Below the pieces are notes generated by a model. It saw only the letters and a program-made list of their open reading frames with translations. It did no database searches and was not told where the DNA came from. From positions 1-64,000 of the forward strand of contig QMRC01000006.1 in the NCBI GenBank assembly GCA_003649205.1: a stretch of 64,000 bases of DNA, in the 5' to 3' direction. Source of the DNA: Thermoprotei archaeon. Lineage in GTDB: Archaea > Thermoproteota > Thermoprotei > Thermoproteales > B15-G16. Position numbers and translations under genes: made by a program. Below, piece after piece: positions 39-59,746 of the stretch. Every line of letters starts with the position of its first letter. Position 1 is the first letter of the stretch.

Positions 39-1328
39 ATGAAATGTATCCTAGCTTTCAGGTACTTCAGGGATAATGTAAACAGCATTGCATATCTCCT
101 AGCTGCAGTAGAGAAAAGTGAAGCAAGTAGGCACGTATCTACTGTGCTGATAAGTGATGTTAGCGAGGTACTCAGATTCGGCGATGCTGATGTCATTGTA
201 CTAGCGTACTCACTCATGACAACACAGGTGGTGAATTTACTAGAGGAGTTCACAAAGTTAAGAGAACTTAAGGATAGGTTAAGAGATAAGTTGCTACTTG
301 TTGCTGGTGGACCTCATGCAACAGGTGACCCAGTTGGCACCCTAGATCTGGGGTTTGACATTGTTGTTCATGGTGAGGGAGAGGAGACACTACCTGAGTT
401 ACTTAGCTGTATAGTACATGGCTTAGATATAGCAGAGGTTAGAGGCATCTGGTATAGAGATGGAAATCGAGCTGTATTCACAGGATATAGACCAAAGATA
501 GAGAACCTCGATGAGTACCCACCGTACTCGGAAACCCATGGACTTTACCCACCAATAGAAATCATGAGGGGTTGCCCTTGGGGGTGCAGGTACTGCCAAA
601 CACCTAGAATTCATGGGTTTATACCGAGGTACAGGAGTGTAGAGTACGTCGTTAAGTACTGTAGGTACTATAGATCTAAGGGATTTACTCACATCAGGTT
701 CATAGCACCCAACGGATTTGCATATGGTTCACCTGATGGTAGGAAGCCAAGGCCTGATAAGCTTGAACATCTCTTGAAGTCAGTTAGAGAAACAGGTATG
801 AAGGTCTTTCTAGGTACGTTCCCTAGTGAGGTGAGACCAGATTCAGTTACGCAGGAAGTACTTAATGTAGTTTCAAAGTATGTGTCTAATAGGAGGATTG
901 CGATTGGTGCCCAGAGTGGTAGTGATAGAGTACTGCAGCTAATTGGGAGAGGCCACACTGTTGATGACGTGTATAGAGCTGTTGATCTAGTAATCGAGTA
1001 TGGGTTTAAGCCATACGTTGATTTTCTCTTTGGATTTCCTGAGGAAACTGATGAAGATCTAGAGAAGTCAATGAATGTTATTAAGGAGCTAGTGAAGAGA
1101 GGAGTCAAGATTAGAGCACACTACTTACTACCACTACCCGGAACACCGTACTGGGGTTCAGTACCTAGAGAGTTACCTAATTGGTTCAAGCAGTTTTTAC
1201 TTAGATTGGAGAGGGGTGGTAAGTTAGATGGTTGTTGGAAGGAGCAAGAGGAGTTAGCGAGAAAAATTATTGAGTTGGAGAGGCGTAGTAGAGCAGTAGT
1301 GATGAGAGTACAGGGGTCTGAAAGGTGA
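39..1328 (+). CDS. B12-binding domain / radical SAM protein (TIGR04013-like)
   Basis: GGPHAT B12-binding motif; RGCPWGCRYC (CxxxCxxC). Confidence 0.85.
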   Translation: MKCILAFRYFRDNVNSIAYLLAAVEKSEASRHVSTVLISDVSEVLRFGDADVIVLAYSLMTTQVVNLLEEFTKLRELKDRLRDKLLLVAGGPHATGDPVGTLDLGFDIVVHGEGEETLPELLSCIVHGLDIAEVRGIWYRDGNRAVFTGYRPKIENLDEYPPYSETHGLYPPIEIMRGCPWGCRYCQTPRIHGFIPRYRSVEYVVKYCRYYRSKGFTHIRFIAPNGFAYGSPDGRKPRPDKLEHLLKSVRETGMKVFLGTFPSEVRPDSVTQEVLNVVSKYVSNRRIAIGAQSGSDRVLQLIGRGHTVDDVYRAVDLVIEYGFKPYVDFLFGFPEETDEDLEKSMNVIKELVKRGVKIRAHYLLPLPGTPYWGSVPRELPNWFKQFLLRLERGGKLDGCWKEQEELARKIIELERRSRAVVMRVQGSER

Positions 1329-1347
1329 GGAACCCCAGCTTTACTGA
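1299..1347 (+). ncRNA. Box C/D guide sRNA overlapping the 3' end of the radical SAM gene
   Basis: GTGATGA (C), 12-nt guide GAGTACAGGGGT, CTGA (D'), aag, GTGAGGA (C'), 12-nt guide ACCCCAGCTTTA, CTGA (D); canonical archaeal spacing. Confidence 0.85.
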
Positions 1348-1683
1348 TTACTCAACTAACTTAACACAAATCCAGTGATTCTGAATGAAGAAGTGAGTAT
1401 CTTCTCTCATATCCTTCCTACTTACTGAGAGACCAATTTCAGAGCTCACTTTACTCAGGATATCGTTTATGAAGTTGCTCACATTGTTGTAAGTACTACG
1501 CTCTTTAGTCTCTAAATACAGCATGAGAGGTTGCTTCTCACCTAGATCGATACTTATGGCCTTACACCTGAACTTATCCTGTACGATTTTACCCAATTCC
1601 TTGATGAATTCTCTAATGGCTCTATCTTGACGGGGAGTGGATCTCAGCTTTTCGATTAGCTGCTTAAGCTCCTCCGAATACAT
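1348..1683 (-). CDS. Hypothetical protein
   Basis: 111-aa ORF filling the gap between genes, protein-like composition. Confidence 0.6.
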   Translation of the reverse strand: MYSEELKQLIEKLRSTPRQDRAIREFIKELGKIVQDKFRCKAISIDLGEKQPLMLYLETKERSTYNNVSNFINDILSKVSSEIGLSVSRKDMREDTHFFIQNHWICVKLVE

Positions 1684-1797
1684 CGATAATACCTAGTGGG
1701 GAAACTAACAAAAGACTTTTACTCTAGGAATACTGCTCAGTTAACTAGTGAAAAGTAAAAGTAACTAGAGGACTCCCTTGATGTTATTGAAAACGAG

Positions 1798-2184
1798 TTG
1801 AGTTCTATGATACGTGAGTACTACGATGTAGAACTGCATGTGGAGAACATTGGTGTAATTGTAGCGAGATTATATCGCTTCCACTCACCACTAACACTAT
1901 CTAGATTAGTTAGCAAGTTACCCCTCTCCTCGATAATGTACAATGCGGGAAATAAGTTCCTATACATACTCTGTGACCTTGGAATTGGGAGAGAAGGAAG
2001 AATACCACATACAAAAGTTAAGGAAGGTCAACTAGCATATTGGCCACTTAGAAAGTACATAGTCATAGCTCTTCAAGAAATGACCCTCACACCTTCGTGT
2101 AATGTACTCGGTGAGATTATTGAGGGGAAAGAACTACTTAGAAATATACCGGGTAGCGTGAGAGTAACCGTAAGGTTAAGGTAG
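1798..2184 (+). CDS. Cyclophilin-like fold protein
   Basis: SPLT...LP, GQLAYWP, NVLGEI resemble archaeal cyclophilin-like family. Confidence 0.65.
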   Translation: MSSMIREYYDVELHVENIGVIVARLYRFHSPLTLSRLVSKLPLSSIMYNAGNKFLYILCDLGIGREGRIPHTKVKEGQLAYWPLRKYIVIALQEMTLTPSCNVLGEIIEGKELLRNIPGSVRVTVRLR

Positions 2185-2196
2185 TGGTGTAAAACC

Positions 2197-2568
2197 ATGA
2201 GCACAGGTAAGGATGAGAAAGTTGAGATACCACCAGTAGTCAAGATCAAGGTCAACTCACTCGAAGACCTAGCTAGATTTGCAGCAGCACTCGTAGGTCC
2301 TGGATACCTAGGACACAACGTCTACATCGTACACTACAAAGAAGGAGATAAACACATCTACGGAATCCTAACAATATACAGAGACTACTACAAGTACTAC
2401 GGAGTACCAATGTTCTACTACTACGAAACACAAGAACCAATAAATGCAAAGTACATACTAGTCAAGGTAGACGAACACGAAGTAGTAACATTTAGCGATG
2501 GCTCAAGACCTGGCTGGATCCACATACCAATAATATCACTAAGCGAAAGACCAAAATTCATAGAGTAA
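2197..2568 (+). CDS. Conserved crenarchaeal hypothetical protein
   Basis: 123-aa ORF in operon; SLEDLARF and DYYKYYGVP resemble cren-specific proteins. Confidence 0.6.
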   Translation: MSTGKDEKVEIPPVVKIKVNSLEDLARFAAALVGPGYLGHNVYIVHYKEGDKHIYGILTIYRDYYKYYGVPMFYYYETQEPINAKYILVKVDEHEVVTFSDGSRPGWIHIPIISLSERPKFIE

Positions 2569-45422: not shown

Positions 45423-46763
45423 GTGCACTTTATGAGATTTGGAGAGAAGCTAGGTGCGCTCTTAATGGTTGAAGCTGCATTTGCTGGAGCATACGTTAGC
45501 ATTACTCGTGGTTTCTTCTACTTGATGATGGTTGAACGTGGTTATAGTGTTAGGGATCTAGCTGTAGTTAGCCTAGTGGCTTCACTATCTATGGTGCTTG
45601 TGAGCTACCTACTGTACAGGAGACCTGAGCTACTTGAGAGAAGCGTCAAGGTTAAACTCCTCACCATGCACATACTCGAGAGAATTTTCTGGTGCATTCT
45701 ACCATTCATAGTGTTTAGATTTAGCTACATGTTTATCCTCCTAGCTTACTCACTAGCACAGGTCATTACTGTACCTGTGTGCGTGCTGCTGAATACTGTG
45801 TTACTCTCTCAGCTAAGTGAGGACGAGTTCAAGAGCGTTACTGGGTGGAGGAATTCCCTTGGCCTAATCTCGTCATTAAGTGCTCAGCTATTGGCGGTCC
45901 ACGTGTTAGCATCTATGAGGAGTCCAGTACGGTACTACTACCTTTACACAATTGCTCTACTCCTTGGCTTCCTCTCATGGATTCCACTTACTATTGCTAG
46001 AGTTAGGGACTATGTGAGGAAGGTTAGTGGTTACTCTAGTGAGGAGGTTGAGGTTATTGCTGGTACTACGTTCATATACTTGGTCCTTCTACTTGGATCA
46101 GCTAACATGCTCAGCATCCTCTGGGTACCATATCTGGTGAATGACCTAGGTGCACCGAGCTACCTAGTAGCTATCATGAACGCTGCTGGTACGATCTCTG
46201 GTTCCATATCGTCAGTTCTCTGGATTAGAGTTGTGTACAGGTACTATCTCTGTGGACTAGTTATTGACTCAGCTGTACCAACCTTAGTCATGACATTACC
46301 ACCAATATTCCATCCAGCTCTAGCTGGGCTCTCAGCTTTTGGCTTTACAGCAGGTAACTTCATTGGCTACTTCATGTACTCGAAGATAGCGGAGAAAAGC
46401 GACCCCATAAAGAACTCCACTAGGTTAGCTGCTGCTAATGCACTGGGTCTCCTAATATCATTGATACCAGTTGCTATCTTGAATTTGAGCGCTAGGGATG
46501 GACTAATTCTCTGTAGTTGCTTGAAGGTACTAGCTCTCGTAATTGCTCTGCTGAGTATTAAGGAAGTATCGCCACTTCCTGATCCACGTATCAGGACTTA
46601 TAGTAAGGTAATCTTCGAGACAGGTATGTTCTCATACAGGTTAACGCTCGAATTCACTACTCACTACGTACTATATACCTTGAAGATAGTAGCTGTTGTC
46701 CTTATAATGCTCTTCATGTACTTCATCTACAGGACAGTTACCATACTGATTAGTGGTGCGTAG
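45423..46763 (+). CDS. MFS-like multi-pass membrane protein
   Basis: About 12 hydrophobic segments. Confidence 0.7.
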   Translation: MHFMRFGEKLGALLMVEAAFAGAYVSITRGFFYLMMVERGYSVRDLAVVSLVASLSMVLVSYLLYRRPELLERSVKVKLLTMHILERIFWCILPFIVFRFSYMFILLAYSLAQVITVPVCVLLNTVLLSQLSEDEFKSVTGWRNSLGLISSLSAQLLAVHVLASMRSPVRYYYLYTIALLLGFLSWIPLTIARVRDYVRKVSGYSSEEVEVIAGTTFIYLVLLLGSANMLSILWVPYLVNDLGAPSYLVAIMNAAGTISGSISSVLWIRVVYRYYLCGLVIDSAVPTLVMTLPPIFHPALAGLSAFGFTAGNFIGYFMYSKIAEKSDPIKNSTRLAAANALGLLISLIPVAILNLSARDGLILCSCLKVLALVIALLSIKEVSPLPDPRIRTYSKVIFETGMFSYRLTLEFTTHYVLYTLKIVAVVLIMLFMYFIYRTVTILISGA

Positions 46764-47424
46764 TATGGAGTTATTGAACATGAGCAATGGCGAGGTAGCA
46801 TTTGAGAGAATAATTCAAGCATTTAAGTTGGCACTAAATGAATTGATAGCACTGGTACCTGTAGTACTAGCATCTGTCCTCATAGTTGCACTCATGCTAG
46901 TAATTGCTAAGTACGTAGGTTCTCTTGTCAAGAGGATACTGAAGGTAGTTGGTCTAGATAGGATACTTGAGAGGTACGTAGGTACACCACCGATATCTGT
47001 CGAGAACTTCATCGTCGTATTCATACAGCTGGGCTTCGTAATACTTGGCGTAACAATATCCGTGACAGTATTCGCACCTGAGTACCTAGCTACCTACAAC
47101 ATGTACCTATCCTATATACTGAGGTTGATGTCGGCTGTAGCACTCATAATAATAACGCTCTTCTGGATAGAGGTACTAGTGAATAAGATTCGTGGTGAGA
47201 GCAAGGTAAAGGCATTTGCCTCACTAATAGCCTTCCTCCTAATACTCACCTTCATAATCGACGTAACAGCACTATCTGAAAGCGTTAAGTCATCACTCGT
47301 ATTCGGAATATCCCTTGGACTTGGATTGACAATAGGAGTATTCTCCATATGGTACTTCATGCATGAATACCTTGAGCACTACATCAGCAGAAAGCATGGA
47401 GAGAAAGAGGTCAGACAAGGCTGA
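46753..47424 (+). CDS. Membrane protein with MscS-associated TM-helix-like region; 3' end overlaps attL
   Basis: Multiple TMs, KRILKVVGLD; its stop codon is the last 3 nt of the 17-bp repeat. Confidence 0.7.
   Translation: MVRSMELLNMSNGEVAFERIIQAFKLALNELIALVPVVLASVLIVALMLVIAKYVGSLVKRILKVVGLDRILERYVGTPPISVENFIVVFIQLGFVILGVTISVTVFAPEYLATYNMYLSYILRLMSAVALIIITLFWIEVLVNKIRGESKVKAFASLIAFLLILTFIIDVTALSESVKSSLVFGISLGLGLTIGVFSIWYFMHEYLEHYISRKHGEKEVRQG
47408..47424 (+). repeat. attL direct repeat AGGTCAGACAAGGCTGA
   Basis: Identical to 58195-58211; 10 nt upstream of the integrase ATG. Confidence 0.92.
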
Positions 47425-47434
47425 TTGAGTTCTC

Positions 47435-48598
47435 ATGGAAGAAATCACACCTGATAGCCCTATCTATCAGGTGAGAATAGGTCTCAATTCGATGGAGTTG
47501 CTGAAGCACTTTGAGAGTTGGTTAATTGCTCAGAACCTGTCCGTGGCTACGGTTAGGTCTCATGTTAGACAGGTTAGGTCTTTCCTCACGTGGTTTGGTA
47601 GGTCTATCGAGGATTTGAGTAGTTTCGATATTGCGTGTTACCTAGCTGAGTGCCGTAAGCGTGGTCTATCTGAGGCTAGTGTGAATCGCTATGCTTCTGC
47701 TCTCAAGAAATTCCTGAGGTTCCTAGCTAGTTACTTCAGAGCTAGGAGAAGGGTTGAGTTAGCTAATTACTTTGAGCAGGTGTACCGTGAGGTCAAGGTA
47801 CCTAAGTACGACCTAGTTGAGGTCAGCATTAAGCGACACATGGAGCCTGATACAGCGAGGAAAGTCATAGACTTAATTCATGACCCCTACTGGAAGTGCT
47901 TTTTCGCTGTGCTGTATGAGACAGGTCTGAGGTTGAGGGAGCTTAGACAGGTCAAGGTAAGTGATGTTCACGAGAACAAGCACGGGTTCGAGATAGTTGT
48001 CAGAGATAGCAAGACACCTGAGGGAGTTAGGAAAGTGTACGTGGTTGAGTACTATCAGCTACTGAGGTACTACCTAGAGCATGTACGTCCGAGAGATAGC
48101 GAGTGGTTGTTCCCTGCTAGGAGAGACCCAAGGCAACCAATCTCCGAGAAAGCAATCTACAGCTTTCTAAACCGCTTCAGAAAGCGGACAGGTATCGTGA
48201 TTAGTCCACACCGCTTTAGACACGCTAGAGCTACTGAGCTTTACCGCAAGGGAGTATCTGAGCAGTCGTTAATGAGGTTGTTTGGTTGGAGGACAAGGAC
48301 AATGATTGATGTCTACAGTAAGCTTTCACAGCGAGATGTGGAGTCTGAGCTACTGAGCAAGGTCTACGGGCTATCCCCTGTAGAGAGTGAGAGGTCTCAG
48401 ACTCGTAAGTGCCCGAGGTGTGGTGCTGAGGTAATACCCACAGCTAGGTACTGTCCATACTGTGGTCTAGCCCTAGATATTGCGTCAGTATTAGGCAAAG
48501 AGGAACAGGTACGGAAATACGCAGAGCTCATTGAAGCACTGCTGAGGTACCTAGAGGAACACCCAGAGTACCTGTCGAAACTATTCTCAAGGACTTAA
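47435..48598 (+). CDS. Tyrosine integrase with N-terminal SAM-like domain and C-terminal zinc ribbon
   Basis: ETGLR (R), DSKT (K), HRFRH, FGW, VYS (Y); CPRC/CPYC; not split by integration. Confidence 0.95.
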   Translation: MEEITPDSPIYQVRIGLNSMELLKHFESWLIAQNLSVATVRSHVRQVRSFLTWFGRSIEDLSSFDIACYLAECRKRGLSEASVNRYASALKKFLRFLASYFRARRRVELANYFEQVYREVKVPKYDLVEVSIKRHMEPDTARKVIDLIHDPYWKCFFAVLYETGLRLRELRQVKVSDVHENKHGFEIVVRDSKTPEGVRKVYVVEYYQLLRYYLEHVRPRDSEWLFPARRDPRQPISEKAIYSFLNRFRKRTGIVISPHRFRHARATELYRKGVSEQSLMRLFGWRTRTMIDVYSKLSQRDVESELLSKVYGLSPVESERSQTRKCPRCGAEVIPTARYCPYCGLALDIASVLGKEEQVRKYAELIEALLRYLEEHPEYLSKLFSRT

Positions 48599-48942: not shown

Positions 48943-49290
48943 TTAGCCTTTCTTTCTGATTAGTCCTCCTATTGCTCCTCCTATCATTGATAGGAATGCT
49001 GAGGCTAGCATCATGAATATTATTGCTAACCCTGCTAACCCACCTGCCCATGCTCCTAGGAATCCAGCTACTGAGAAGCCTAGTACTGTCAGCACTATTG
49101 CTGCTAGTATTCCTCCAATGATTCCACTGAGGAACCCTGCTGCTGCTCCTCTACCTGCTCCTCCTCCAGCTACTAGACCTGCTATGAAGCCTCCAAGTAC
49201 TGGTGCGAAGATGTGTAGTATGGGTGAGAGTACGGCTGTAGCTAACATACCTGCAAAGACACCAGCTATGAAACTCAGTACACGACCCAT
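48943..49290 (-). CDS. Gly-rich membrane protein (DUF5518-like)
   Basis: PVLGGFIAG, GAAAGFLSG, IGGAIGG. Confidence 0.75.
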   Translation of the reverse strand: MGRVLSFIAGVFAGMLATAVLSPILHIFAPVLGGFIAGLVAGGGAGRGAAAGFLSGIIGGILAAIVLTVLGFSVAGFLGAWAGGLAGLAIIFMMLASAFLSMIGGAIGGLIRKKG

Positions 49291-49560: not shown

Positions 49561-49944
49561 TCAGAACTTGTCTTCAGGCTCATTTCCTGTTCCTTCATGC
49601 TCAGTGAGTTGTTGGGTACTAGACTTAATGAGTTCTTCAGCTCTTTGGAGAAGTTCAGCGACTTCACGACCCTTCTCAGTGAGCTCAATGTACCTAAGAC
49701 CGTGCTTGGTATACGTCCTAACAAGACCGTACTGAAGACAGGTACTGAGGGCTCTGTAAGTACTGACAGGTGAGATACCGTATCTCTGAAGTTCTCTAAT
49801 GTGCATAGCTCTACCTGTTTTGTGAAGAATTAGCAGCAATTTAATTCCCGGTCTACCTAAGTCATCAGCTAGAGCTGACATTTTCCTCTGTCGTTTTCTG
49901 GTGATAAACCTAATAACGATATCTTCGAGCATTCGTAACCTCAT
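49561..49944 (-). CDS. Winged-HTH regulator (MarR/SSV1 F93-like); likely start ~49881
   Basis: STYRALSTCLQYGLV...IELTEKGREVAELL. Confidence 0.8.
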   Translation of the reverse strand: MRLRMLEDIVIRFITRKRQRKMSALADDLGRPGIKLLLILHKTGRAMHIRELQRYGISPVSTYRALSTCLQYGLVRTYTKHGLRYIELTEKGREVAELLQRAEELIKSSTQQLTEHEGTGNEPEDKF

Positions 49945-49975
49945 TCTCAGTCTATACCCGATTTAGAGGTATCAC

Positions 49976-50039
49976 GTAATAATATTACAACGCTATATCT
50001 CGAAACTGATAAATTGTTATAACGTTACAGAGTTGTAAC
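49976..50039. promoter_or_regulatory. Divergent control region with three palindromes
   Basis: GTAATAATATTAC (49976-88), GTTATAAC (50016-23), GTTACA-N4-TGTAAC (50024-39) between divergent wHTH and RHH genes. Confidence 0.55.
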
Positions 50040-50042
50040 AGG

Positions 50043-50240
50043 GTGAGAGAGGTGCCTAAGAGTAAGGTGCCTATGGTCTTGGTTACCTTCCATATCCCGA
50101 TACCACTCCTTAGAGAACTTGACAGGTTGGTGGAGGAGGGTAAGTTCCCGAGCAGGAGCGAGGCGATAAGGCACGCAATAATCCAACTCCTAGCTCGTGA
50201 GCGTCAAAGAACACAAATACACGAGGTGTTGGTAGCGTGA
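50043..50240 (+). CDS. Ribbon-helix-helix (CopG-like) regulator
   Basis: VTFHIP..LLRELDRLVEEGKFPSRSEAIRHAI. Confidence 0.9.
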   Translation: MREVPKSKVPMVLVTFHIPIPLLRELDRLVEEGKFPSRSEAIRHAIIQLLARERQRTQIHEVLVA

Positions 50241-50485
50241 CCATTGTCAACTATGTCGAGGTAATTAGGAACATCATACTCAATGCTTTGAAGGAGCATG
50301 GCTACATTAGTGACCTAGAGCTTGTTAGGGCTGTCAAAGAGGCTACGGGACTCAGCTACGTAGACTTTGCTCCCATTCTTGAGCAGGTACTGAGTGAGCT
50401 AATGAGGTCTGGCGCAATTAGACGTGTAATGTCAGCAAGCAACCCGAGAAAGGTCGAGCATGGGTGGGAGCTGTGTACACAATAA
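50237..50485 (+). CDS. Small wHTH-like proviral protein
   Basis: LEQVLSELMRSGAIRR; GTGA-coupled to the RHH gene. Confidence 0.6.
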   Translation: MTIVNYVEVIRNIILNALKEHGYISDLELVRAVKEATGLSYVDFAPILEQVLSELMRSGAIRRVMSASNPRKVEHGWELCTQ

Positions 50486-50829
50486 AGCCGAATGGATTCT
50501 ACCTCAGGTTGGTTTTGGATGCACTGAAGTACTGTGCTAGGACTGAAAGAGGCTCTATTGTGTCTATTTACCCAAAGAAAGTCGCTAAGTTAAATGGGTA
50601 CAGTGTTCGTGCATGTGGGAGGTATAGAGATGACAGTGAGGTAGAGAGGTCGCTATCCCCTGCCGAGCTATCTATCATTAGGTACTGGCTGGATTACCTC
50701 TGGGTCAATGGGCTGTGTAGCCGTGAGAAGACTAGTCGTGACAGGTGGAACTACGTATTCCCGAGGGAGAACTTGCCTAAGGCTATCAAGCTACTTGAGG
50801 AGGTGCTCAATGGTGAAGTACAAGATTGA
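50464..50829 (+). CDS. Hypothetical proviral protein
   Basis: 121 aa in coupled operon. Confidence 0.55.
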   Translation: MGAVYTIKPNGFYLRLVLDALKYCARTERGSIVSIYPKKVAKLNGYSVRACGRYRDDSEVERSLSPAELSIIRYWLDYLWVNGLCSREKTSRDRWNYVFPRENLPKAIKLLEEVLNGEVQD

Positions 50830-50950
50830 GGAGATAGTCAAGGAGTTGAAGGTTGCTCTCAGGGATAGAGAACTCAGAGAAGCATTGCTGAAGCACTTCT
50901 CCAACAACCCAAAGGCTCAAGCAATCATACTACTCCTGTCAGGTGAGTGA
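50810..50950 (+). CDS. 46-aa proviral protein (ATG at 50810)
   Basis: GAGGAGGTG RBS before ATG; MVKYKIEEIVKELK... Confidence 0.6.
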   Translation: MVKYKIEEIVKELKVALRDRELREALLKHFSNNPKAQAIILLLSGE

Positions 50951-51189
50951 GCATGATTGAGCTGAGTTTCAAGACGAAGCGGGACTTCGATAACTGGGTT
51001 AAGGCGCTGTATGACTTCGGTTCGAATCACTGTGTTGAGCCTGTCGTCATCAAGCTAGATGGTAATGACCTCTACGACAGGTACATGGTCTGCATTGTGT
51101 ACCATGCTTGGACTGAGGAAGGTGCTTACGCAGTGACCTGTCTAGCCCGCATAGTAGCGATAGTGTACAGGGAAGGTGAGCAGAAGTGA
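50947..51189 (+). CDS. Hypothetical proviral protein
   Basis: GTGA start/stop overlap, AGGTGA RBS. Confidence 0.55.
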   Translation: MSMIELSFKTKRDFDNWVKALYDFGSNHCVEPVVIKLDGNDLYDRYMVCIVYHAWTEEGAYAVTCLARIVAIVYREGEQK

Positions 51190-51368
51190 GTCGCTACCAC
51201 GGGCACAAGGTAACTATCACGATTATTGCGACAACAGGTTCTGGACTACCGACAGGTGAGCGAAAGAGCGATTTCATTAGATTCATGGTCGAGCAGGTAC
51301 TGGAACGTGAGCTTTCTAAGAGGCTCCGTGATTTCCGTGTCCTCAAAGTCATGGTGAAGGTGATGTAG
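51186..51368 (+). CDS. Hypothetical proviral protein
   Basis: GTGA overlap, AGGTGA RBS. Confidence 0.55.
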   Translation: MSRYHGHKVTITIIATTGSGLPTGERKSDFIRFMVEQVLERELSKRLRDFRVLKVMVKVM

Positions 51369-51447
51369 ATGGTTCCTGCTACTACTACCTATTCTATTTC
51401 TAGTAATTCGTTTAGACAAAATACGCGGGACATTAAACGCGGTTCAG

Positions 51448-51572
51448 ATTGGAACCAATGTTCCCTCTCAGAGGAATCATTGAAACCAATCATTGGAATC
51501 AATGTCAGTGGTATGATTGGAACCAATGATTGGAACCAATCATTCCACTCGCTTAGTCTCATTGGTTCCAAA
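51448..51572. repeat. Array of six quasi-palindromic ATTGGAACCAAT units (candidate origin or operator)
   Basis: Copies at 51448, 51479, 51492, 51516, 51529 and inverted at 51561. Confidence 0.8.
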
Positions 51573-51583
51573 AACGGAGAGAG

Positions 51584-51907
51584 GTGTTGAGTATCCCCCG
51601 AATAACTATCTACATCCATGAGAGCGATTGGGAAAAGCTGACGAAAATAGCTGAGCAGAGAGGACAATCAATGTACAGCATAGTGAAGCAAGTAGTACTT
51701 GAGTTCCTGAAGCTAAGTAACCCAATTGTTGCTCATGGTAAGCTTTCTAGGGATTTAGCTACCTGTCGGAGCATTATCAAGCGATTTGGTTGGTGTGCTC
51801 TCTGCATACATGCTGAGGTTGTTGGTGATAGGTTAGTCTGCAGAAAGACAGGCAAAGTCATAGAAAAACCCATATGGCAATGCCCACACCCCATACCCAA
51901 GGTGTAA
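51584..51907 (+). CDS. RHH protein with C-terminal Cys-rich (Zn) domain
   Basis: RITIYIHESDWEKL..IAEQRGQSMYSIVK; CALC...C...CP; GAGAGGTG RBS. Confidence 0.75.
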   Translation: MLSIPRITIYIHESDWEKLTKIAEQRGQSMYSIVKQVVLEFLKLSNPIVAHGKLSRDLATCRSIIKRFGWCALCIHAEVVGDRLVCRKTGKVIEKPIWQCPHPIPKV

Positions 51908-51983
51908 ATCATGCTTTTTACACAGCTGCAGCTGTGTAAATGATTTTTACTCACTGACAGGTGCGTAAATTTGGTGAGAATTC

Positions 51984-52352
51984 ATGTCCGAGATGGAGAA
52001 GTTAATTAGGAACCTGAACATACTGCGAAACTACTTCAGCAAGGTACCACCTGAAGTCATTGAGGCTCTCATGTACTTTGAGGATAGGTTCTTCACTGAG
52101 AAATACCATGTTGTTCGCTCTAAGACAGGTAGGGAGTATCGCTACAGGTACCTCTACATCAGGTTGAATGACTACAGGACACTAGGTTACTTCAGGATAA
52201 ATGATAGCAATGATGAATTGCTGCTACACGAAATTAGGCAGGTCAAGGCATTTTCACAAGCACTACTACAGTACATAGCAATGCTCAGACACAGCAAACT
52301 AGCAAACCTCACCAAAATTTACTCAAGGACCTTGAGTAAAAACAACCAATAA
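51984..52352 (+). CDS. Hypothetical proviral protein with a basic beta-hairpin
   Basis: HVVRSKTGREYRYRYLY; GGTGA RBS. Confidence 0.6.
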   Translation: MSEMEKLIRNLNILRNYFSKVPPEVIEALMYFEDRFFTEKYHVVRSKTGREYRYRYLYIRLNDYRTLGYFRINDSNDELLLHEIRQVKAFSQALLQYIAMLRHSKLANLTKIYSRTLSKNNQ

Positions 52353-52413
52353 CACATCAGCAATTGGGGAAATTGAATTGGGGTGATGCCCCCTGAACCT
52401 CAAGGTCTATTTC

Positions 52414-53400
52414 GTGAAGAAAACTAGGCAATACGAGGTCTATGAGGGCTCTAGGAGAATCCTCAGGACTAAGGTACATGCAAAAGCTCACGAGTACCTA
52501 TCGAAACAAATCAATTCAAGTTTTGAGTTCTACTTTGTTTGTTGCAATAGGGAGCACCTGTTAGCATGTTCACGTTTCTTTGAACTCACAGGTCGCAGGC
52601 TCAATGTGTTGATTAGTTACAACTTCATACGTGACAGGTACCTCACACAGGTGCTTCAGCAAGTTAGACCACACCTAAGCAAAGTCATGATTGATTCAGG
52701 TGCTTTCCATGTACTTATCCGCAAGGTACCCCTGGAAAAGTTCCAGAGCTACATAGGTGAGTACGTGAATTGGCTCAACAACCACACAGAGCTTTACGAC
52801 TACTGTGTCGCACCTGACGTACCCTGTGATGAACGACCCGCAGAAAAAATCCAGAAACTACCAAACAGGTACAAGATAGAGCTAACCATAGCTAACACAG
52901 TTCACTGGATAGATAGGTTGACAGACCCTCGCAAGGCTGTGGCTGTAGTTCAGGGTTATTTCGTGAATGAGTACCTGCTCTGTGCTGAGAAGCTGAAAGA
53001 ACTCGGGCTCACAACAGCAAAGACAGGTGTCGGCTCTTTATGTGTCAGGAAATACAGTAGACAACAAGCACGTGAAGTACCACAGATACTAGCTAGCATA
53101 AGACAGGTCTTACCGTCATGGGTGAAACTTCACGCATTCGGTCTTCAGCTAGATTTCTTACCGACCTGTCTCAAGTACCTACACAGCTCAGACAGTGCCT
53201 CATGGCAATTAAGTTACTCAAAGTTCAATAGGATACGAATAGCGAACCTGTCGACAGGTCAAACAGTTGAGCTTGATTTAGTTAGTCATGGCGGAGCGAG
53301 GAAAAAGAACCTAGACCAAGTCACGATATACACATACAACCTCTTAGCCTACTGGAATAGAGTTCAGCAACTAACGAGACAGGCAGCACAGACAAAATAA
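52414..53400 (+). CDS. dpdA: TGT-fold DpdA-like deazaguanine DNA transglycosylase
   Basis: IDSGAF, APDVP, VVQG, GVGS, LHAFG, SSDSASW in TGT order; no Zn-binding or PUA domain. Confidence 0.8.
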   Translation: MKKTRQYEVYEGSRRILRTKVHAKAHEYLSKQINSSFEFYFVCCNREHLLACSRFFELTGRRLNVLISYNFIRDRYLTQVLQQVRPHLSKVMIDSGAFHVLIRKVPLEKFQSYIGEYVNWLNNHTELYDYCVAPDVPCDERPAEKIQKLPNRYKIELTIANTVHWIDRLTDPRKAVAVVQGYFVNEYLLCAEKLKELGLTTAKTGVGSLCVRKYSRQQAREVPQILASIRQVLPSWVKLHAFGLQLDFLPTCLKYLHSSDSASWQLSYSKFNRIRIANLSTGQTVELDLVSHGGARKKNLDQVTIYTYNLLAYWNRVQQLTRQAAQTK

Positions 53401-53419
53401 AGTAAGTGTTGAAAACTGC

Positions 53420-54184
53420 TCAAGTCCCCATGTTCTCTATCTCATGTCCTGTAGGGTATAGGTTCAGTTTCTTTATGTACTTGTACACTGTTTGACGTGA
53501 AACACCGAGTGCTCTAGCTATATCACTTATACTGTAACCTTTCTTCAACATATCCTCAATAGTCTTCTCCCTATTAGCAGTCTGGATAGCTACCTGTAAG
53601 TCCATGAACACCTTCTCAACAAAGAGCCTCCTCATTTCCTGATACTTCACATAGATGTCGTGGTCTAGCTTAGGCACGAAGGTATCTACACCAATTTCCT
53701 TCACCACGAACTTACCCGTAGGAGTCCACGTAAACCTGTAGATGTGTGCCTCTCTCTCACCTTGCTTACTCTTCCTAATGTGTACATGTATCCAACACAT
53801 CTCACGTAGTGCTCTTAAGAGCAGGCGATAGGTAGGTACCGTGAATATGACAGCACCTGTCACAGTCCTAGCAACCTCAAGGAACTTTACAAATAGCTGA
53901 CGGTCTTCTTTAAGAAAGTCATATTTGCTTATCCACACACCAGCATCATCATAGCACAGACACTTAACACGCTTACGATACCTAAGACACTCCCTAATAA
54001 TTGGGAAAGACTGCTTAACATCGAAGAATACGTAGTTGAGAGCAGTCTCCCTACAATACAGCTCACTCAAGACCTTGATAGCGTAGGTAGTCTTACCAAC
54101 CCCTTGCTGACCCTGAATAACAATAACCTCAAATCCATTGTTCCTGAAAGCACGCTCAATTATCTTAGTTAGGACAAACGGCAT
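53420..54184 (-). CDS. P-loop ATPase with C-terminal HTH (fusellovirus B251-like)
   Basis: NNGF..IVIQGQQGVGKTTYA, YDDAGVW, IFTVP; SISDIARALGVSRQTVYKY. Confidence 0.8.
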   Translation of the reverse strand: MPFVLTKIIERAFRNNGFEVIVIQGQQGVGKTTYAIKVLSELYCRETALNYVFFDVKQSFPIIRECLRYRKRVKCLCYDDAGVWISKYDFLKEDRQLFVKFLEVARTVTGAVIFTVPTYRLLLRALREMCWIHVHIRKSKQGEREAHIYRFTWTPTGKFVVKEIGVDTFVPKLDHDIYVKYQEMRRLFVEKVFMDLQVAIQTANREKTIEDMLKKGYSISDIARALGVSRQTVYKYIKKLNLYPTGHEIENMGT

Positions 54185-54187
54185 ACC

Positions 54188-54490
54188 TCACTCCTCCTCA
54201 ATCTCCTCCTCACGACCAACAGGTATGAACCTCTTACGACCCATTACATGCGTTATAGTCCTGAAGAACTTAGCAAACGATAGCAGAGCTGAGTAACCAC
54301 GACCGCCCTCAGCTAACCTCAACTCAAGGTAAGGTATGATGAATGAGTCTCTCAAGTCCTGAAGGTTGTACCTGTCGCATATGAAGAGCAACGTAGCTAT
54401 CTTACGAGCCTCACCATACTGCAACCTAGTTAAGCGAAGTATGTTCCCCGAGGTAAGAGCCTCAATTAGTTCCTCTGACATGAGCCTCAC
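54188..54490 (-). CDS. Hypothetical proviral protein
   Basis: ~100 aa in coupled operon with ATPase; GAGGTGA RBS. Confidence 0.6.
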   Translation of the reverse strand: MRLMSEELIEALTSGNILRLTRLQYGEARKIATLLFICDRYNLQDLRDSFIIPYLELRLAEGGRGYSALLSFAKFFRTITHVMGRKRFIPVGREEEIEEE

Positions 54491-54491
54491 C

Positions 54492-54947
54492 TCACAGGTG
54501 AATGATACCGAACTTCACGAGCATGAACATGATGTACGCACCTATGATTAACCCACAAATCAGAGCAATGATGACAGGAGTAGCCCTAACAGGTACCTTC
54601 TCCGTTAGCAGAGCCCTCAGTACCTGTCCCTTGATAATCTGCGATATAGTGTCACTATCAATGTAGGGGTCTTGATATTGACCACAGAAGTACACTATCT
54701 TTCTGACAGGTGCCCACACCTTCACGTCTCTAAACACCCTAACCCTACCCCCAGCAAGCACCAGCTTCCTCTCCGGATTGAGCAATTTAGCAGGCGTAAT
54801 CTCGACATGCTTATCGTTCACGATAATAGCTATGTGCTTTGACCTGAAGATACGTCCTTCAGGTCTCGCTAGGAACATCATGATGAATGTGACAGGTATA
54901 GCTACGCAGTATATTGCGACTAGGATAGGGCTCAACATAGGGCTCAC
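54492..54947 (-). CDS. Proviral membrane protein (N- and C-terminal TM)
   Basis: Two hydrophobic segments flanking a soluble beta region. Confidence 0.65.
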   Translation of the reverse strand: MSPMLSPILVAIYCVAIPVTFIMMFLARPEGRIFRSKHIAIIVNDKHVEITPAKLLNPERKLVLAGGRVRVFRDVKVWAPVRKIVYFCGQYQDPYIDSDTISQIIKGQVLRALLTEKVPVRATPVIIALICGLIIGAYIMFMLVKFGIIHL

Positions 54948-55469
54948 CTACAGAGTCTTCTCAGCTTCAGCAATGAGCTTGTTCAGGACCTGCTCAACCC
55001 TCTCAATTCGCTTAGCTAACTCACTGAGCCTATCCTCACTATGATTTGAGCCTAGCTTACTCACGTCGATAGCGTCTAGGAATATCGAGAGCGGAACAGC
55101 AATAGCGTACTCAAACCTCTCAACCTTACCACTCTGCTCGACAGGTATCGTAACTTGCTGAGCCTCCCTCTCCCTCACCAAAATCAGAACACGGTCAGGA
55201 TTCCTAACCGCAGAGACAGGTAGCTTAGACAGGTACGGTCTCCTACCTGTCTCACTTTCGGACGTGTACGGTCTACCTCTCTGAAAGTGAAGTACTAAGC
55301 ACAGAGCACCGAGACTAGCTAGAGCAATGAAACCAACCCACTTCAGCGTAAAGACCGCTCCAGAGGATATCTTAGCAGTCAGTGGTGACAGGTATGGGTC
55401 ATACCAAATCAAGTACATGACTGCACCTGTGAGCAGTGCTGTGCTCAGGTAAAGGAAACGAGTACTCAC
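54948..55469 (-). CDS. Proviral membrane protein with C-terminal coiled coil
   Basis: Two N-terminal TMs; LSELAKRIERVEQVL. Confidence 0.65.
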   Translation of the reverse strand: MSTRFLYLSTALLTGAVMYLIWYDPYLSPLTAKISSGAVFTLKWVGFIALASLGALCLVLHFQRGRPYTSESETGRRPYLSKLPVSAVRNPDRVLILVREREAQQVTIPVEQSGKVERFEYAIAVPLSIFLDAIDVSKLGSNHSEDRLSELAKRIERVEQVLNKLIAEAEKTL

Positions 55470-55594
55470 TTACAACCCACCTCACTTATGTAAACTTTTT
55501 CACAAAAACCATAAGGTCAACTTGCGAGATATCCTGAATAATCACTGAACACGGAGCAAACCTGAGACAGGTCGAAAAGTAGGAGGTGAAGTAG

Positions 55595-55954
55595 GTGGAC
55601 ATAGACCTAGGGAACATCCTGAGAGCTGTCCTGTTTGTAGCCCTAATACCCACGCTATTCGGAGCTATAGCTGGATTCGTTGACCCTTCACTACAACCAA
55701 TGATACAGCCCCTACTCAGCCTAGTACCAATGCTCATAATCCTCAACCTAATCAAAGACCTGTTCTCAGAAGCTGGAGCAAAGGGATTCGTCAAGATATT
55801 CGATATCCTACTGCTCGTAATGATGTTACCTGTCCTAATCAACATGTTCGGAGCAGCCACAGGACAAAACGAAGCACTAGCACAAGTCTCAGGACTCCTA
55901 CAGCAACTCCTACCAATCCTACTATTCATCAAGCTCATCGAAGAGATGGTTTAG
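55595..55954 (+). CDS. Putative major capsid protein with two tandem fusellovirus VP1/VP3-like hydrophobic hairpins
   Basis: Two ~55-aa repeats, each helix(LIP/LP)-linker-helix(LLSLVPMLII / LLQQLLPILLF); strong GGAGGTGA RBS. Confidence 0.65.
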   Translation: MDIDLGNILRAVLFVALIPTLFGAIAGFVDPSLQPMIQPLLSLVPMLIILNLIKDLFSEAGAKGFVKIFDILLLVMMLPVLINMFGAATGQNEALAQVSGLLQQLLPILLFIKLIEEMV

Positions 55955-55975: not shown

Positions 55976-57730
55976 ATGAAACCCAAGCCCCTTTTTGCAA
56001 TCTTAACAGTACTCACTCTAGTGCTCATAGTGGCGGTTGTTAATGCTGGTGAGTACACGCTATACGATGTACTTCAGTACGCTCATGAGGTACATGTCTT
56101 CGGAAAGACATACAACACAGCAAGTTATGGCACCACAACTTACTCTGGGACATGGAATCTAACTGATGTTGTGTCGGGGAGGAAAGTTACATTTGGCTAC
56201 AGGCAATACCTACAAGACCCAGATAGCTCCGACACAATCGTTATTGTGTTTCAGAAGAATACAGCTATCGAGGTCGGTACTGGTAGCGGGAAGTGTGTCT
56301 ACGGTAAACCTGTCGTAATTACGTATGATACTGAAACAGGAAGGAGGACTATGTACTACATTGATGGCGGTGAACTGAAGAAAGTAGGTGAATTCACTGG
56401 TGGTACCTACGTCTACTGGAACGGTACAAAGTTATGTCAAGCACTACGTTTCAAGGACTGGTTAGATTTCCACAAGTTCTTTAACAACACATGCATGTTA
56501 ATACTCCCAGACATCACGACATACGACTACAGGATAATTGATGGGTCTTCCGAGCTATTAAAGGATAAGTGTGGTGGAAATGGTTTCCACACCCTCATTA
56601 TCTTCGGTGGTGAGTACCTAAACAAATCGATAATTGTTGAAGTTGCTGGAGCCTACGGAATCAAGAACATAACGCTCACTACAGAACTCAACACAGTCTA
56701 CACGATTGACCCAAAGCACTTGAAGTTAGCTGTGTTCACAGGTAACCTAACGGAGACGCTATCGAGGGCGAGCCAGAGCACAGAGGAAAGTACACAGGAA
56801 AGTACAACTAACACGACAAACGAGACCTCAACACCAACCACAGCACCAGAGACGAAGGTGTACAAGGTCACGATACATGTCTACGATGTGGATACCAATG
56901 AGGAAATCACATCAGCAATGGTTAAGGCGGGTTGGTTCACGAAGACAGGTTCACCTGTTACCTTTGAGTTCAAGTGGAAGGAACCACAGTGGTTACCTAT
57001 CTCAGCTAGTGCTACAGGTTACAAGTCCTTCAGCACAACTATCTGGGTCGATACCAACATGACGCTGTGGGTAGGGCTAGTCAAGGAAACCTCGAACAGC
57101 ACCGAGCAATACAGTAAATTACTGAGGCTCGGTGTCTCAATTGCGGGTGTTGGTTCAACTCCATATTGGGCTCAGGAAAACAAGACATTCACAGAGTGGG
57201 CTAATGAGGTTGAGCAGTTACTATCCTCATCACAGGCTCCTGAGGTTAAGTATGAGACTACGTGGTATGGTTTGAAGATAGTCGCTGTGAAGGTACCTTC
57301 AGGTAGACCAGCATACGGAGTAGCGACTATTGTCGCTGTTAAGAAAGGATTTCTCGGTACCCTAACATGGGAAGAAGAACTCGGTACTGTGCAAATAGTG
57401 AATGGTACGGGTTATTTCCATGTTGACTACGAGACAATCAAGAACAAGCTACAACTCAAAGAGTGGGGAGGGGAGTACTTCTACGGTTTCAAGATTGTAT
57501 GGAAGGTCGGTGACCTAGACCCAGAGGTCGAGGTTGTACCTGTCAAGAATACATGGACGCCTGTCTACATTCAGGTGAATGAGCAGACAGGAACCTACTC
57601 AGCAACAACACTACCACAGACAGCATTAACGAATGTCGGAACATCACTAACACAGATGCTCATAACCCTACTACCACTGTTCATCATATTCGCACTCATT
57701 GGAGCTATTACAGGTCGTAGAAGGCGATAG
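55976..57730 (+). CDS. Virion spike/adhesin-like glycoprotein
   Basis: Signal peptide, beta-rich domains, S/T linker, 12 N-X-S/T sequons, C-terminal TM plus RRRR. Confidence 0.7.
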   Translation: MKPKPLFAILTVLTLVLIVAVVNAGEYTLYDVLQYAHEVHVFGKTYNTASYGTTTYSGTWNLTDVVSGRKVTFGYRQYLQDPDSSDTIVIVFQKNTAIEVGTGSGKCVYGKPVVITYDTETGRRTMYYIDGGELKKVGEFTGGTYVYWNGTKLCQALRFKDWLDFHKFFNNTCMLILPDITTYDYRIIDGSSELLKDKCGGNGFHTLIIFGGEYLNKSIIVEVAGAYGIKNITLTTELNTVYTIDPKHLKLAVFTGNLTETLSRASQSTEESTQESTTNTTNETSTPTTAPETKVYKVTIHVYDVDTNEEITSAMVKAGWFTKTGSPVTFEFKWKEPQWLPISASATGYKSFSTTIWVDTNMTLWVGLVKETSNSTEQYSKLLRLGVSIAGVGSTPYWAQENKTFTEWANEVEQLLSSSQAPEVKYETTWYGLKIVAVKVPSGRPAYGVATIVAVKKGFLGTLTWEEELGTVQIVNGTGYFHVDYETIKNKLQLKEWGGEYFYGFKIVWKVGDLDPEVEVVPVKNTWTPVYIQVNEQTGTYSATTLPQTALTNVGTSLTQMLITLLPLFIIFALIGAITGRRRR

Positions 57731-57733: not shown

Positions 57734-58036
57734 ATGACTAACCGCTACGTCTACCTTGGAAAGAAAGTGAAGGACATAGGCAAGAAAGGACTAGACCGAC
57801 CAAGCGAGTACCTAGCAATAGCGAGAGCTATAGCACAAGACTACAAGGCTGGTAGGATAAGTAAAAAGACTGCTCACGGACGCTTTTTACTACTTTACAG
57901 GCTCGTGGATAAGAATAGCAAGCTGAAGGTACCTAAGTCAGTTAAGGAACGTCTCAAACGCAAGATTAAGGAAATCTGGATGAAGACCATTGGAGGTGGG
58001 AAGGTGGCTCGAAAGAGGAAAAGAAAGAAAAGGTAG
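57734..58036 (+). CDS. Highly basic protein, putative virion nucleoprotein (VP2 analogue)
   Basis: K/R-rich, ends RKRKRKKR; in the structural operon. Confidence 0.65.
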   Translation: MTNRYVYLGKKVKDIGKKGLDRPSEYLAIARAIAQDYKAGRISKKTAHGRFLLLYRLVDKNSKLKVPKSVKERLKRKIKEIWMKTIGGGKVARKRKRKKR

Positions 58037-58194: not shown

Positions 58195-58211
58195 AGGTCA
58201 GACAAGGCTGA
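58195..58211 (+). repeat. attR direct repeat AGGTCAGACAAGGCTGA
   Basis: Identical to 47408-47424. Confidence 0.92.
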
Positions 58212-58290: not shown

Positions 58291-59049
58291 CTAATCAGCA
58301 ATCACATACCTAACCTCACCAGTGAAGCACCACTCACTCTCATCACTACGTTTGAGATCCACATCTACACACTTCTGCTGAAGATACAGTATTAGTTCTC
58401 GACTCGGGATTGCCTCACTAGGTAGTGAATCAAGAACACGTCTATACTGTACAGCTATGATTCCATCGAAGTACTTACTTAGCTCCTCAACTGACTCAAC
58501 AACCTTACTCTCTGGAATTAACTCAATACCGAAGAGGATGTAAGCAATGAAGCTAACCTCATCACCATAAACTTCACGACATTTCTCCCTAAGAGCATTC
58601 AACCTCACAATCTCACTCTGAGGAATACCCTTACACAACACAGCATTTCTCAGGTACTCATCCCAAACCTCAATACCAACCCTAATAACGAGCCTACTAG
58701 GTTTAAGCAGCTCAAGCACCTGTCTCACAGAGTCAAAACTTAGGTACTCAGGTCTAGACTCAATATCCACAATTCTACCACAGGTAAATCTAGAGAGCTT
58801 GAGCACGGTATCCAGAGGTAGCTCAAAGAATGAACCACCATTAAATACAGTAATTCTCTCAATACTAAACCTCAGGGTAGCATCTTCCAGAAGCGACAAT
58901 ATCTTGTCATTTGTCTGAATTACATCGGATAGTGAGTTACCTGCCTCAAGGAAGAAGGGACAGAAGACACATCTACCCCAACGACATCTAAATCCCTTGA
59001 GTATCACGATAGCTCTCTTCCTAGATCTCTCAATCACAACACCTAGCAC
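58291..59049 (-). CDS. Radical SAM protein, RaSEA/TIGR01210-like (archaeosine pathway), compact
   Basis: CRWGRCVFC, FNGGSFF, ESRPEY, GIE, LCKG. Confidence 0.7.
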   Translation of the reverse strand: MLGVVIERSRKRAIVILKGFRCRWGRCVFCPFFLEAGNSLSDVIQTNDKILSLLEDATLRFSIERITVFNGGSFFELPLDTVLKLSRFTCGRIVDIESRPEYLSFDSVRQVLELLKPSRLVIRVGIEVWDEYLRNAVLCKGIPQSEIVRLNALREKCREVYGDEVSFIAYILFGIELIPESKVVESVEELSKYFDGIIAVQYRRVLDSLPSEAIPSRELILYLQQKCVDVDLKRSDESEWCFTGEVRYVIAD

Positions 59050-59746
59050 TGAGAATCTCCCTCAAACCACTAATTAACTTACTCAAACTAGTTGGAGTTA
59101 TGAGTATGAGATCTGGATCATCGTAGTAACCACCTAGAGATACCTCATCAAGCTCATGAGGAGGTACCTCATTAACTCTCGCAGCTAAGTTCTTAACCTC
59201 AATACCTAGCATGGAACAAGCACGCTCTAGAGCAGCATAGCTATCTGAATCCCACCTTAGATACGACACAAAGCACTCATAATAACTCCTAAATCTACTC
59301 AGGAACAATCTCAATCTCTCACAGGTAACCTCCCTATAGAGTACCTTCACTTCACTAGTTTCATACTTAGGATTCCAGTCATACGCACAATAGGGGTAGT
59401 ACTCTTCAAGCTCTCTCGGTACGATACCGGCATTCGTTATAATGACTTGATGAATATCCTCGTAGTACCTACCTAACGACTTCAAAGCCCTAATTATGAA
59501 GTAGTGTATGTAGGATTGAGAGTACGGCTTACCGTAAGCACATGGTAGGAAGAGACAGACTCTATACCTCTTCCTTGGCTTCCACTCAGTTAGTAATCTC
59601 TTAAAACCCTCTTCAAAGAATGGGTGCTTAAGGTACCTAAGACCTACACCTCTGAGGAATTCCCTACCATCACCAGACCAGATAAGTTCGTGACCATCCC
59701 AAATAACGTACAAGCTAGATCCCTCAAGAAGTTCTCCACAAACCAA
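59030..59746 (-). CDS. Stand-alone ArcS core-like (DUF5591) protein
   Basis: LFLPCAYGKPYSQSYIH, GIVPRELE..YP..YD; no TGT-like or PUA domain. Confidence 0.75.
   Translation of the reverse strand: MVCGELLEGSSLYVIWDGHELIWSGDGREFLRGVGLRYLKHPFFEEGFKRLLTEWKPRKRYRVCLFLPCAYGKPYSQSYIHYFIIRALKSLGRYYEDIHQVIITNAGIVPRELEEYYPYCAYDWNPKYETSEVKVLYREVTCERLRLFLSRFRSYYECFVSYLRWDSDSYAALERACSMLGIEVKNLAARVNEVPPHELDEVSLGGYYDDPDLILITPTSLSKLISGLREILSARCCD

Follow-up and report, generated by a model that had tools for sequence, protein, structure and literature searches.

The largest group in the survey of Hutinet et al. (2019) consists of 76 phages that encode the transglycosylase DpdA only, and the survey suggested that these phages use the preQ0 (7-cyano-7-deazaguanine) of their host or take up exogenous precursors (PMC6884629). 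The archaeal viruses with pathway genes given in that work include 12 Ligamenvirales and 2 Bicaudaviridae, and the DNA of the DpdA-only mycobacteriophage Orion is reported there as unmodified (fewer than 6 modifications per million nucleotides). Cui et al. (2023) measured the deoxynucleoside of 7-carboxy-7-deazaguanine (CDG), dCDG, at 0.04% of G in the virus STSV2, which encodes only DpdA and an ArcS C1 domain; in their account the host is without the pathway and the source of the base is not known (PMC10516641). Here we describe a lone DpdA-family gene (52414-53400) carried by an integrated element of 10,787 bp in a 64,000-nucleotide stretch, the window, of contig QMRC01000006.1 from a Thermoprotei archaeon (assembly GCA_003649205.1). 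The best-supported mechanism, to which we give even chances, is that this enzyme inserts a 7-deazaguanine into DNA from salvaged preQ0. An initial annotation made from the sequence alone had overstated the novelty of the gene, given the catalogue of archaeal-virus pathway genes from 2019 (PMC6884629) and the STSV2 measurement of 2023 (PMC10516641). Lone DpdA in non-tailed archaeal viruses is already known. What is new is the type of carrier, the host lineage and the explicit salvage-only background.

The open reading frame (ORF) contains, as the initial annotation had stated, all the named motifs of the tRNA-guanine transglycosylase (TGT) fold in order: IDSGAF (D94), APDVP (D135), VVQG (Q180), GVGS (G207), HAFG (H240) and SSDS (D260). 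When 60 homologues were aligned, the only invariant columns were D94, D135, Q180, G181, H240 and D260, at a mean column identity of 12%; the motifs are therefore not chance matches. D94, D135 and D260 aligned with the equivalent motifs in 10 reference proteins, phage DpdAs included. In Salmonella DpdA, Asp95 is described as the acid/base, Asp130 as the residue of base recognition and Asp256 as the nucleophile (PMC10164549). Judged by alignment, the window protein carries the three aspartates of the TGT superfamily.

An AlphaFold2 model of the protein was made from 11 sequences (pLDDT 83.4, pTM 0.86). Its best Foldseek matches in the PDB were bacterial and eukaryotic TGTs, DpdA 7UI4 and the archaeal TGT (arcTGT) 1IQ8. 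On alignment with TGT structures by VIA-align, 273-282 residues were superposed with Z 20-21 and a root-mean-square deviation of 3.8-4.0. The protein is thus predicted to form a TGT-type (beta/alpha)8 barrel. The best matches in BFVD include mycobacteriophage and rudivirus proteins named queuine tRNA-ribosyltransferase and proteins of Vibrio phage nt-1 and Cellulophaga phage phiST.

In tRNA TGTs the Zn-binding Cys/His motif lies C-terminal to the nucleophile. The cysteines of the window protein are at residues 43, 44, 52, 131, 138, 190, 210 and 252; as none lies beyond 252, there is no TGT-type Zn motif, and the Cys cluster of arcTGT 1IQ8 is visible in the profile alignment. The Pfam scan found no PUA domain. 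These results bear out the annotated lack of Zn and PUA domains. The protein is 328 residues long, against 540 for the TgtA of the host. Pfam TGT (PF01702) gave no match at E up to 1, and the sole Pfam family found was DpdA (PF23859, residues 156-269), at 27.0 bits against a gathering cut-off of 27. The same family is precomputed on ten close homologues. The score with the NCBIfam equivalog for bacterial DpdA (NF041059) was 31.2 bits where 200 are required. Matches were also obtained with phrog_1279, 'queuine tRNA-ribosyltransferase' (4.1e-11), and with the DpdA model of PADLOC (1e-6); a PADLOC match to KwaA (E 0.0087) was discarded as noise. A narrow profile (A2) detected no TGT in the PDB. 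With the broader A3 profile, taken from the 60-homologue alignment, DpdA 7UI4 (1.5e-7) and arcTGT 1IQ8 (2.6e-7) were found with the motifs in register.

The relation to other members was addressed with a maximum-likelihood tree (39 rows, 287 columns) in which the host arcTGT served as the root. Of the ~150 homologues listed, 27 were included, together with 6 reference proteins, 3 paralogues from the host and 3 proteins from metagenomes or metagenome-assembled genomes (MAGs). The validated DpdA1 proteins (CAjan, 9g, Rosebush, 7-11) and a clade of 31 rows (93/98) come together on a branch with 99/96 support; the clade includes the window protein, the DpdA of Orion and that of L007, a Hydrothermarchaeota MAG contig. 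The host arcTGT, a host paralogue on contig 11, and the STSV2 DpdA paired with a host paralogue on contig 13 (99/93) fall outside this branch. By this tree, in which the bootstrap falls short of full convergence (correlation 0.978) and several of the branches are long, the window protein belongs to the Orion-type DpdA clade, apart from the host arcTGT. The phylogeny that had been proposed as a check therefore gives no clustering with tRNA TGTs, and the DpdA-like identity, with phage DpdAs and away from arcTGT, stands by family matches, structure and tree.

An action of the protein on RNA (tRNA or viral RNA) instead of DNA was considered in the light of these results. The window protein has in common with arcTGT (1IQ8, host TgtA), for which preQ0 is the substrate, the TGT barrel, the aspartates and the Gln at position 180, which is found in bacterial TGT too. 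The A3 profile matches 1IQ8 about as well as 7UI4, and database annotators have named relatives queuine tRNA-ribosyltransferase. However, the window protein is devoid of the Zn subdomain, of the C-terminal tRNA-binding domains and of PUA, it is not matched by PF01702, and the tree parts it from arcTGT and places it beside the validated DNA-modifying DpdA1. The host already has a full arcTGT, to which BLAST of the window protein gave no significant match (E 16). Action on RNA is thus very unlikely.

Within the 99/96 branch, the DpdA1 proteins of CAjan and 9g, validated for dPreQ0/dG+, represent the sister group of the window clade. Their DSGAF, KLHAFG and SDSxSW motifs are nearly identical to those of the window protein, and they are single-protein enzymes that work without DpdB. 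They differ in that a pairwise comparison hardly detects any similarity (E 0.003 and 0.076) and in residue 180, which is Gln in the window protein, Orion and L007 and His in CAjan, 9g, Rosebush, 7-11 and STSV2. Moreover, the CAjan and 9g phages are described as encoding the full preQ0 pathway, unlike the element (PMC6884629). The bacterial DpdA of Salmonella Montevideo (7UI4) has the same fold and the three aspartates, with His181 at the place of Gln180, and it is reported to need the ATPase DpdB (PMC10164549). No DpdB-like gene was recognised in the element: Pfam and PHROGs scans gave no ParB-like gene, and a PADLOC scan covered only 4 of its proteins.

The Orion enzyme itself resembles that of the window in its length, the lack of Zn and PUA domains, Gln at position 180, its place in the 31-row clade and the match to PF23859, which in the window protein is at threshold. 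Identity between the two is ~25%, and the carriers differ, a 68-kb tailed phage as against a 10.8-kb archaeal provirus. When nine reference virus records were searched with PF23859, Orion alone was detected (468 bits); CAjan, 9g, Rosebush, 7-11, nt-1, HVTV-1, STSV2 and SIRV2 gave no match. Annotation by PF23859 thus under-reports DpdA, since it detects the Orion-type branch only and neither the validated DpdA1/DpdA2 nor HVTV-1 (DpdA4). The Pfam label 'DpdA' therefore covers a branch that is unvalidated and the least characterised. The A3 profile ranked Orion (161 bits) above STSV2 (38.5 bits, 1.9e-11) and CAjan, 9g, 7-11 and Rosebush (13-23 bits), and matched nothing in the nt-1, HVTV-1 and SIRV2 records.

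A class-wide search of 120 genomes gave matches in 9 at E up to 1e-18, about 6 of them true (two truncated). Two of the nine are arcTGTs (45% identical to that of the host) and one is a TGT-like paralogue; these were not counted as true. At the related loci (L006-L008, L019-L027), DpdA is the sole gene in common with the element, except for a weak ATPase match in L007. The DpdA of L007 (phrog_1279 at 1.8e-26) is 28% identical to that of the window, and its closest relative among virus records is from a Methanofastidiosa tailed virus (42%). The DpdA gene of L008, a 46-kb IMG/VR contig, has near it a methyltransferase, a sulfotransferase, glycosyltransferases and a tail C-terminal domain, and no preQ0 genes were found near it. 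The contig 13 paralogue that pairs with STSV2 DpdA (C13:30665-31204; L016, ORF 1174..2214, minus strand) is a chromosomal TGT-like protein of 346 aa. Beside its gene are those of a PP-loop ATPase (PF01171) and of a protein that ends in a Thg1 C-terminal domain; the paralogue gene could serve in tRNA modification or be a second DNA-modification gene.

The supply of the base was examined in the host assembly (2.07 Mb, 93.8% complete) and in the genome of a sister of the same genus (G001, 71% complete). Six-frame searches of the whole host assembly, the window included, gave no FolE (PF01227), FolE2/MptA (PF02649), QueD or QueE, and each synthesis-family model gave matches in archaeal control genomes. 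The absence of preQ0 synthesis genes from the element, as annotated, is covered by these searches. Two weak 'QueC' matches, confined to the PP-loop, proved to be LarE (291 bits) and an AsnB-like fusion. All of the 29 other genomes of the order have a full-length QueC, which both genomes of the genus lack; QueD was not found in G001 either. The host has an arcTGT (TgtA, 546 bits against a cut-off of 350) and two YhhQ-type queuosine-precursor transporters (190 and 131 bits against 51), a family annotated as carrying both preQ0 and preQ1 (NF008406 description). As five families of de novo synthesis are absent while arcTGT and two YhhQ are present, any 7-deazaguanine pool must be imported. Thus the host appears to salvage preQ0, and the DpdA of the element appears to be limited to the imported pool. 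Of the host archaeosine precursor pool postulated in the initial annotation, the arcTGT and the means of uptake are in place and the synthesis by the host is not.

Several further features of these genomes were recorded. The genus of the window keeps YhhQ in two copies and has lost QueC. In two relatives of family f2 (G014 and G024), a long QueC frame (~500 aa), which we take to be a Gat-QueC fusion, lies within ~3 kb of a YhhQ gene. The missing FolE and FolE2 bear on pterin synthesis as well.

An intact enzyme without substrate, a silent cargo in unmodified DNA, would be in keeping with the five missing synthesis families and with the case of Orion, for which a carrier without preQ0 genes, a host without the synthesis pathway and DNA with fewer than 6 modifications per million nucleotides are reported (PMC6884629). 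The Mycobacterium host of Orion, however, is described as having no Q genes (PMC6884629), whereas in the present host arcTGT, the two YhhQ transporters and genes like ArcS and RaSEA are retained, which implies that preQ0 enters the cell. In addition, the catalytic residues are invariant across the clade and relatives 42-47% identical are full length, which argues for selection. We consider silent cargo improbable.

An active DNA transglycosylase could also insert another base, such as CDG, preQ1 or some other scavenged 7-deazapurine. STSV2, with only DpdA and ArcS and a host reported to be without pathway genes, carries dCDG, and DpdA3 is thought to insert CDG or ADG (PMC10516641). The annotation of YhhQ members for both preQ0 and preQ1 leaves room for such a base, and Gln in place of His at residue 180 could shift specificity. 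Against this, all DpdAs characterised by 2023 insert preQ0, according to the same paper (PMC10516641), and in the tree the window protein lies outside the STSV2 branch. Since the host arcTGT itself needs preQ0, this is the likeliest base to be imported, and another base is quite unlikely.

STSV2 (Bicaudaviridae), a crenarchaeal virus of the non-tailed kind, is like the element in that its DpdA is unaccompanied by genes of preQ0 synthesis and its host is without the pathway (PMC10516641). It differs in its 76-kb genome, in a DpdA outside the window clade and in having its own ArcS C1 gene, where here the ArcS C1 gene belongs to the host and lies past attR.

The element is a 10,787 bp insertion bounded by exact 17-nt direct repeats (Table 1). 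In the sister genome G001 the two flanks are contiguous, at 90-92% identity and with an overlap of exactly 17 nt, and thus represent the empty site. The same junction was found in a metagenome run of an independent study (X2), where a contig of 1,152 nt joins 47407 to 58195 and omits the 10,787 bp, the 17 letters fitting either side. The depth of this contig is 36, and that of related-element fragments in the same run is 3-23. Fragments of the DpdA gene are present in runs X2 and X3. Another X2 joint, from 51470 to 54219, was set aside as unreliable, since one of its sides spans just 45 letters and 20 foreign letters intervene. The element is truly integrated and mobile.

Table 1. Coordinates of the element, its genes and the adjoining host genes in the window (a point marks features given without strand).
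Feature	Coordinates	Strand	Basis and remarks
attL core, 17 nt AGGTCAGACAAGGCTGA	47408..47424	.	last codons and stop of host gene 46753..47424
Tyrosine integrase with C-terminal zinc ribbon, intact (not split by integration)	47435..48598	+	Phage_integrase 3.4e-24; phrog_1 7.9e-39
Gly/Ala-rich membrane protein, DUF5518	48943..49290	-	PF17647, 3.7e-10
Ribbon-helix-helix (RHH, CopG-type) regulator	50043..50240	+	RHH_1, 4.1e-9; opens the plus-strand block closed by the DpdA gene
Four copies of a 14-nt motif (GATTGGAACCAATG-like, inverted arms ATTGG/CCAAT)	51447..51541	.	repeat search; ~95 bp between two small ORFs
Small protein, weak Arc/RHH-like N-terminus, Cys-rich C-terminus	51584..51907	+	phrog_582 at E 0.0051 (weak)
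122-aa protein directly upstream of the DpdA gene	51984..52352	+	no family in Pfam, PHROGs, PADLOC
DpdA-family guanine transglycosylase	52414..53400	+	GTG start, 328 aa; last gene of the plus-strand block
SSV B251-type 'DnaA-like' AAA+ ATPase, C-terminal helix-turn-helix	53420..54184	-	phrog_5484 at 5e-41
Three genes upstream of the ATPase, same operon: 173 aa (transmembrane, TM), 151 aa (2 TM), 100 aa	54188..55469	-	ORF reading; no family found
119-aa hydrophobic protein, candidate virion membrane protein (VP3-like by position)	55595..55954	+	sequence and position
584-aa protein, candidate spike/fusion glycoprotein	55976..57730	+	signal-like N-terminus, C-terminal TM anchor ending RRRR, 12 N-X-S/T sequons
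100-aa highly basic protein	57734..58036	+	no family found
attR core, second 17-nt copy	58195..58211	.	exact direct repeat
Host genes beyond attR	58291..59746	-	RaSEA-like radical-SAM 58291..59049; standalone ArcS C1-domain protein (DUF5591) 59030..59746

The target gene encodes a membrane protein with an MscS-type transmembrane helix (PF05552); integration is at its protein-coding 3' end and not in a tRNA gene, and no tRNA gene was found within the 64-kb window. The ArcS C1 gene matches PF17884 at 1.9e-14, and the NCBIfam scores for ArcS (54 bits) and RaSEA (43 bits) are both under the cut-offs. The ArcS C1 and RaSEA-like genes are host genes, as G001 has both beside the empty site. They lie ~80 bp past attR, and in STSV2 an ArcS C1 gene of the virus lies beside DpdA. 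The adjacency of DpdA and ArcS here is a coincidence or possibly a functional neighbourhood.

Two proteins of the element can be related by sequence to known viruses. The integrase is 26% identical over ~394 aa to integrases of Archaeoglobi pleolipoviruses (~1e-27). The ATPase, searched by tblastn against a phage collection, matched 70 records, all of them viruses and mostly fuselloviruses and pleomorphic viruses of Archaeoglobi, the best being SMF1 (35%). The element thus has the B251/VP8-type ATPase together with the integrase expected of a fusello- or pleolipovirus. With GacPV1, ThalV2 and SMF1 (genomes of 13-16 kb, similar to the element in size and module layout) it has the integrase (26%, ~1e-27) and the B251-type ATPase (26-35%) in common, and no other sequence similarity was seen. 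No structural-gene similarity to these three was detected, no Rep gene was recognised in the element, and no BLAST match to DpdA was found in their genomes. Since only the integrase and the ATPase match by sequence, the structural assignments depend on topology and gene order. Homologues of the structural proteins (VP1/VP3 or VP3/VP4) were not found by Pfam, PHROGs, tblastn against 50,697 phage records or BLAST against the three related viruses. For the 119-aa protein there was no Pfam match and no BLAST match in SMF1, GacPV1 or ThalV2. The 584-aa protein gave no tblastn match in the phage collection at E up to 0.01 and none in Pfam or PHROGs; against the atlas its best feature score was 0.77, with TM values of 0.29 or less, which are too low to inform.

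The element might instead be an integrative, plasmid-like element and not a virus, with a DpdA that would protect the transferred plasmid DNA. The absence of recognisable capsid or envelope proteins in the searches above is what such an element would show. However, every record matched by the ATPase is a virus, and the 119-aa/584-aa pair followed by membrane proteins and the ATPase mirrors the annotated VP3-VP4...ATPase core of GacPV1 and ThalV2. L007 (217-10756) shares this layout: a membrane protein of small size and one of 787 aa are joined there by two membrane proteins, a protein of 100 aa and an ATPase of phrog_5484. Genes for conjugation or plasmid replication were not found in the element. 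A plasmid-like nature is therefore unlikely, and the element is, with good probability, a virus. From the ATPase, the integrase and an envelope-like module seen by topology, it is likely to be non-tailed and fusello/pleolipovirus-like. Of the small, non-tailed, temperate virus that had been annotated, the integrated state is established, and the viral and non-tailed character is likely by the same evidence. L007, as another small element with the same ATPase and a DpdA, suggests that the trait recurs in such viruses. In the phage collection DpdA matched 110 records at E up to 5, none of them a fusello- or pleolipovirus, and we found no published report of DpdA in these groups, in a scope that did not take in the per-virus gene lists of Hutinet et al. 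(2019).

Among the other features of the element, the 14-nt motif array is a candidate operator or replication origin. A fragment of the gene for the 122-aa protein occurs in run X3, with 4 differences over 236 nt.

The results suggest the following course for insertion of a 7-deazaguanine into DNA. The 10.8-kb element entered the 3' end of the host membrane-protein gene with the help of the tyrosine integrase that it encodes. The base, most likely preQ0, would enter through the two host YhhQ-type transporters and form the same pool on which the host arcTGT draws for tRNA archaeosine. By analogy with TGT/DpdA chemistry, D260 would attack C1' of a guanine nucleotide in the DNA of the element, with D94 as the general acid/base. 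Guanine would depart and the 7-deazaguanine would be installed, with D135 and Q180 holding it and F98 and F242 providing the stacking. The modified DNA may then blunt the action of host nucleases. The analysis established the fold, the conserved residues, the clade, the integrated state and the host gene inventory, and we infer DNA as the target, preQ0 as the base, the anti-restriction role and the formation of virions.

A number of observations weigh against this course. The Pfam DpdA score only just reaches its cut-off (27 versus 27), and the NCBIfam score for bacterial DpdA is 31 against a cut-off of 200. Among the 9 reference virus records PF23859 picks up Orion only, and by profile the family appears equally distant from the DpdA and the arcTGT of the PDB. 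Aligned sequences place at position 180 the Gln of tRNA TGTs, where DNA-validated DpdAs and STSV2 carry His. DNA modification has been demonstrated for no member of the Orion-type clade, as the DNA of Orion, the closest characterised relative and the sole member of the clade to have been tested, carried no 7-deazaguanine (PMC6884629). On the side of the host, a cell without the synthesis pathway may offer little or no substrate; conversely, a clustered que operon may sit in a gap of assemblies that are 93.8% and 71% complete. Finally, no virion protein is recognisable by sequence in the element.

With this locus the range of DpdA comes to include fusello/pleolipovirus-like proviruses of very small size, in Thermoproteales-like archaea and in Hydrothermarchaeota. 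The DpdA-only viruses are the least understood group, and the hypothesis of an exogenous precursor becomes directly testable here because the carrier has DpdA only and the host, without synthesis, has arcTGT and two importers. As a tentative proposal, a minimal envelope-type provirus may tie hypermodification of its DNA to a metabolite of the community, its Orion-type DpdA competing with arcTGT for preQ0 that is made by neither virus nor host and comes in by YhhQ alone. If this is true, protection against restriction, and perhaps the switch between the carrier state and productive infection, would track environmental 7-deazaguanine. It would also provide the first evidence for a functional family of DNA-modifying enzymes in the large Orion-type 'DpdA-only' clade.

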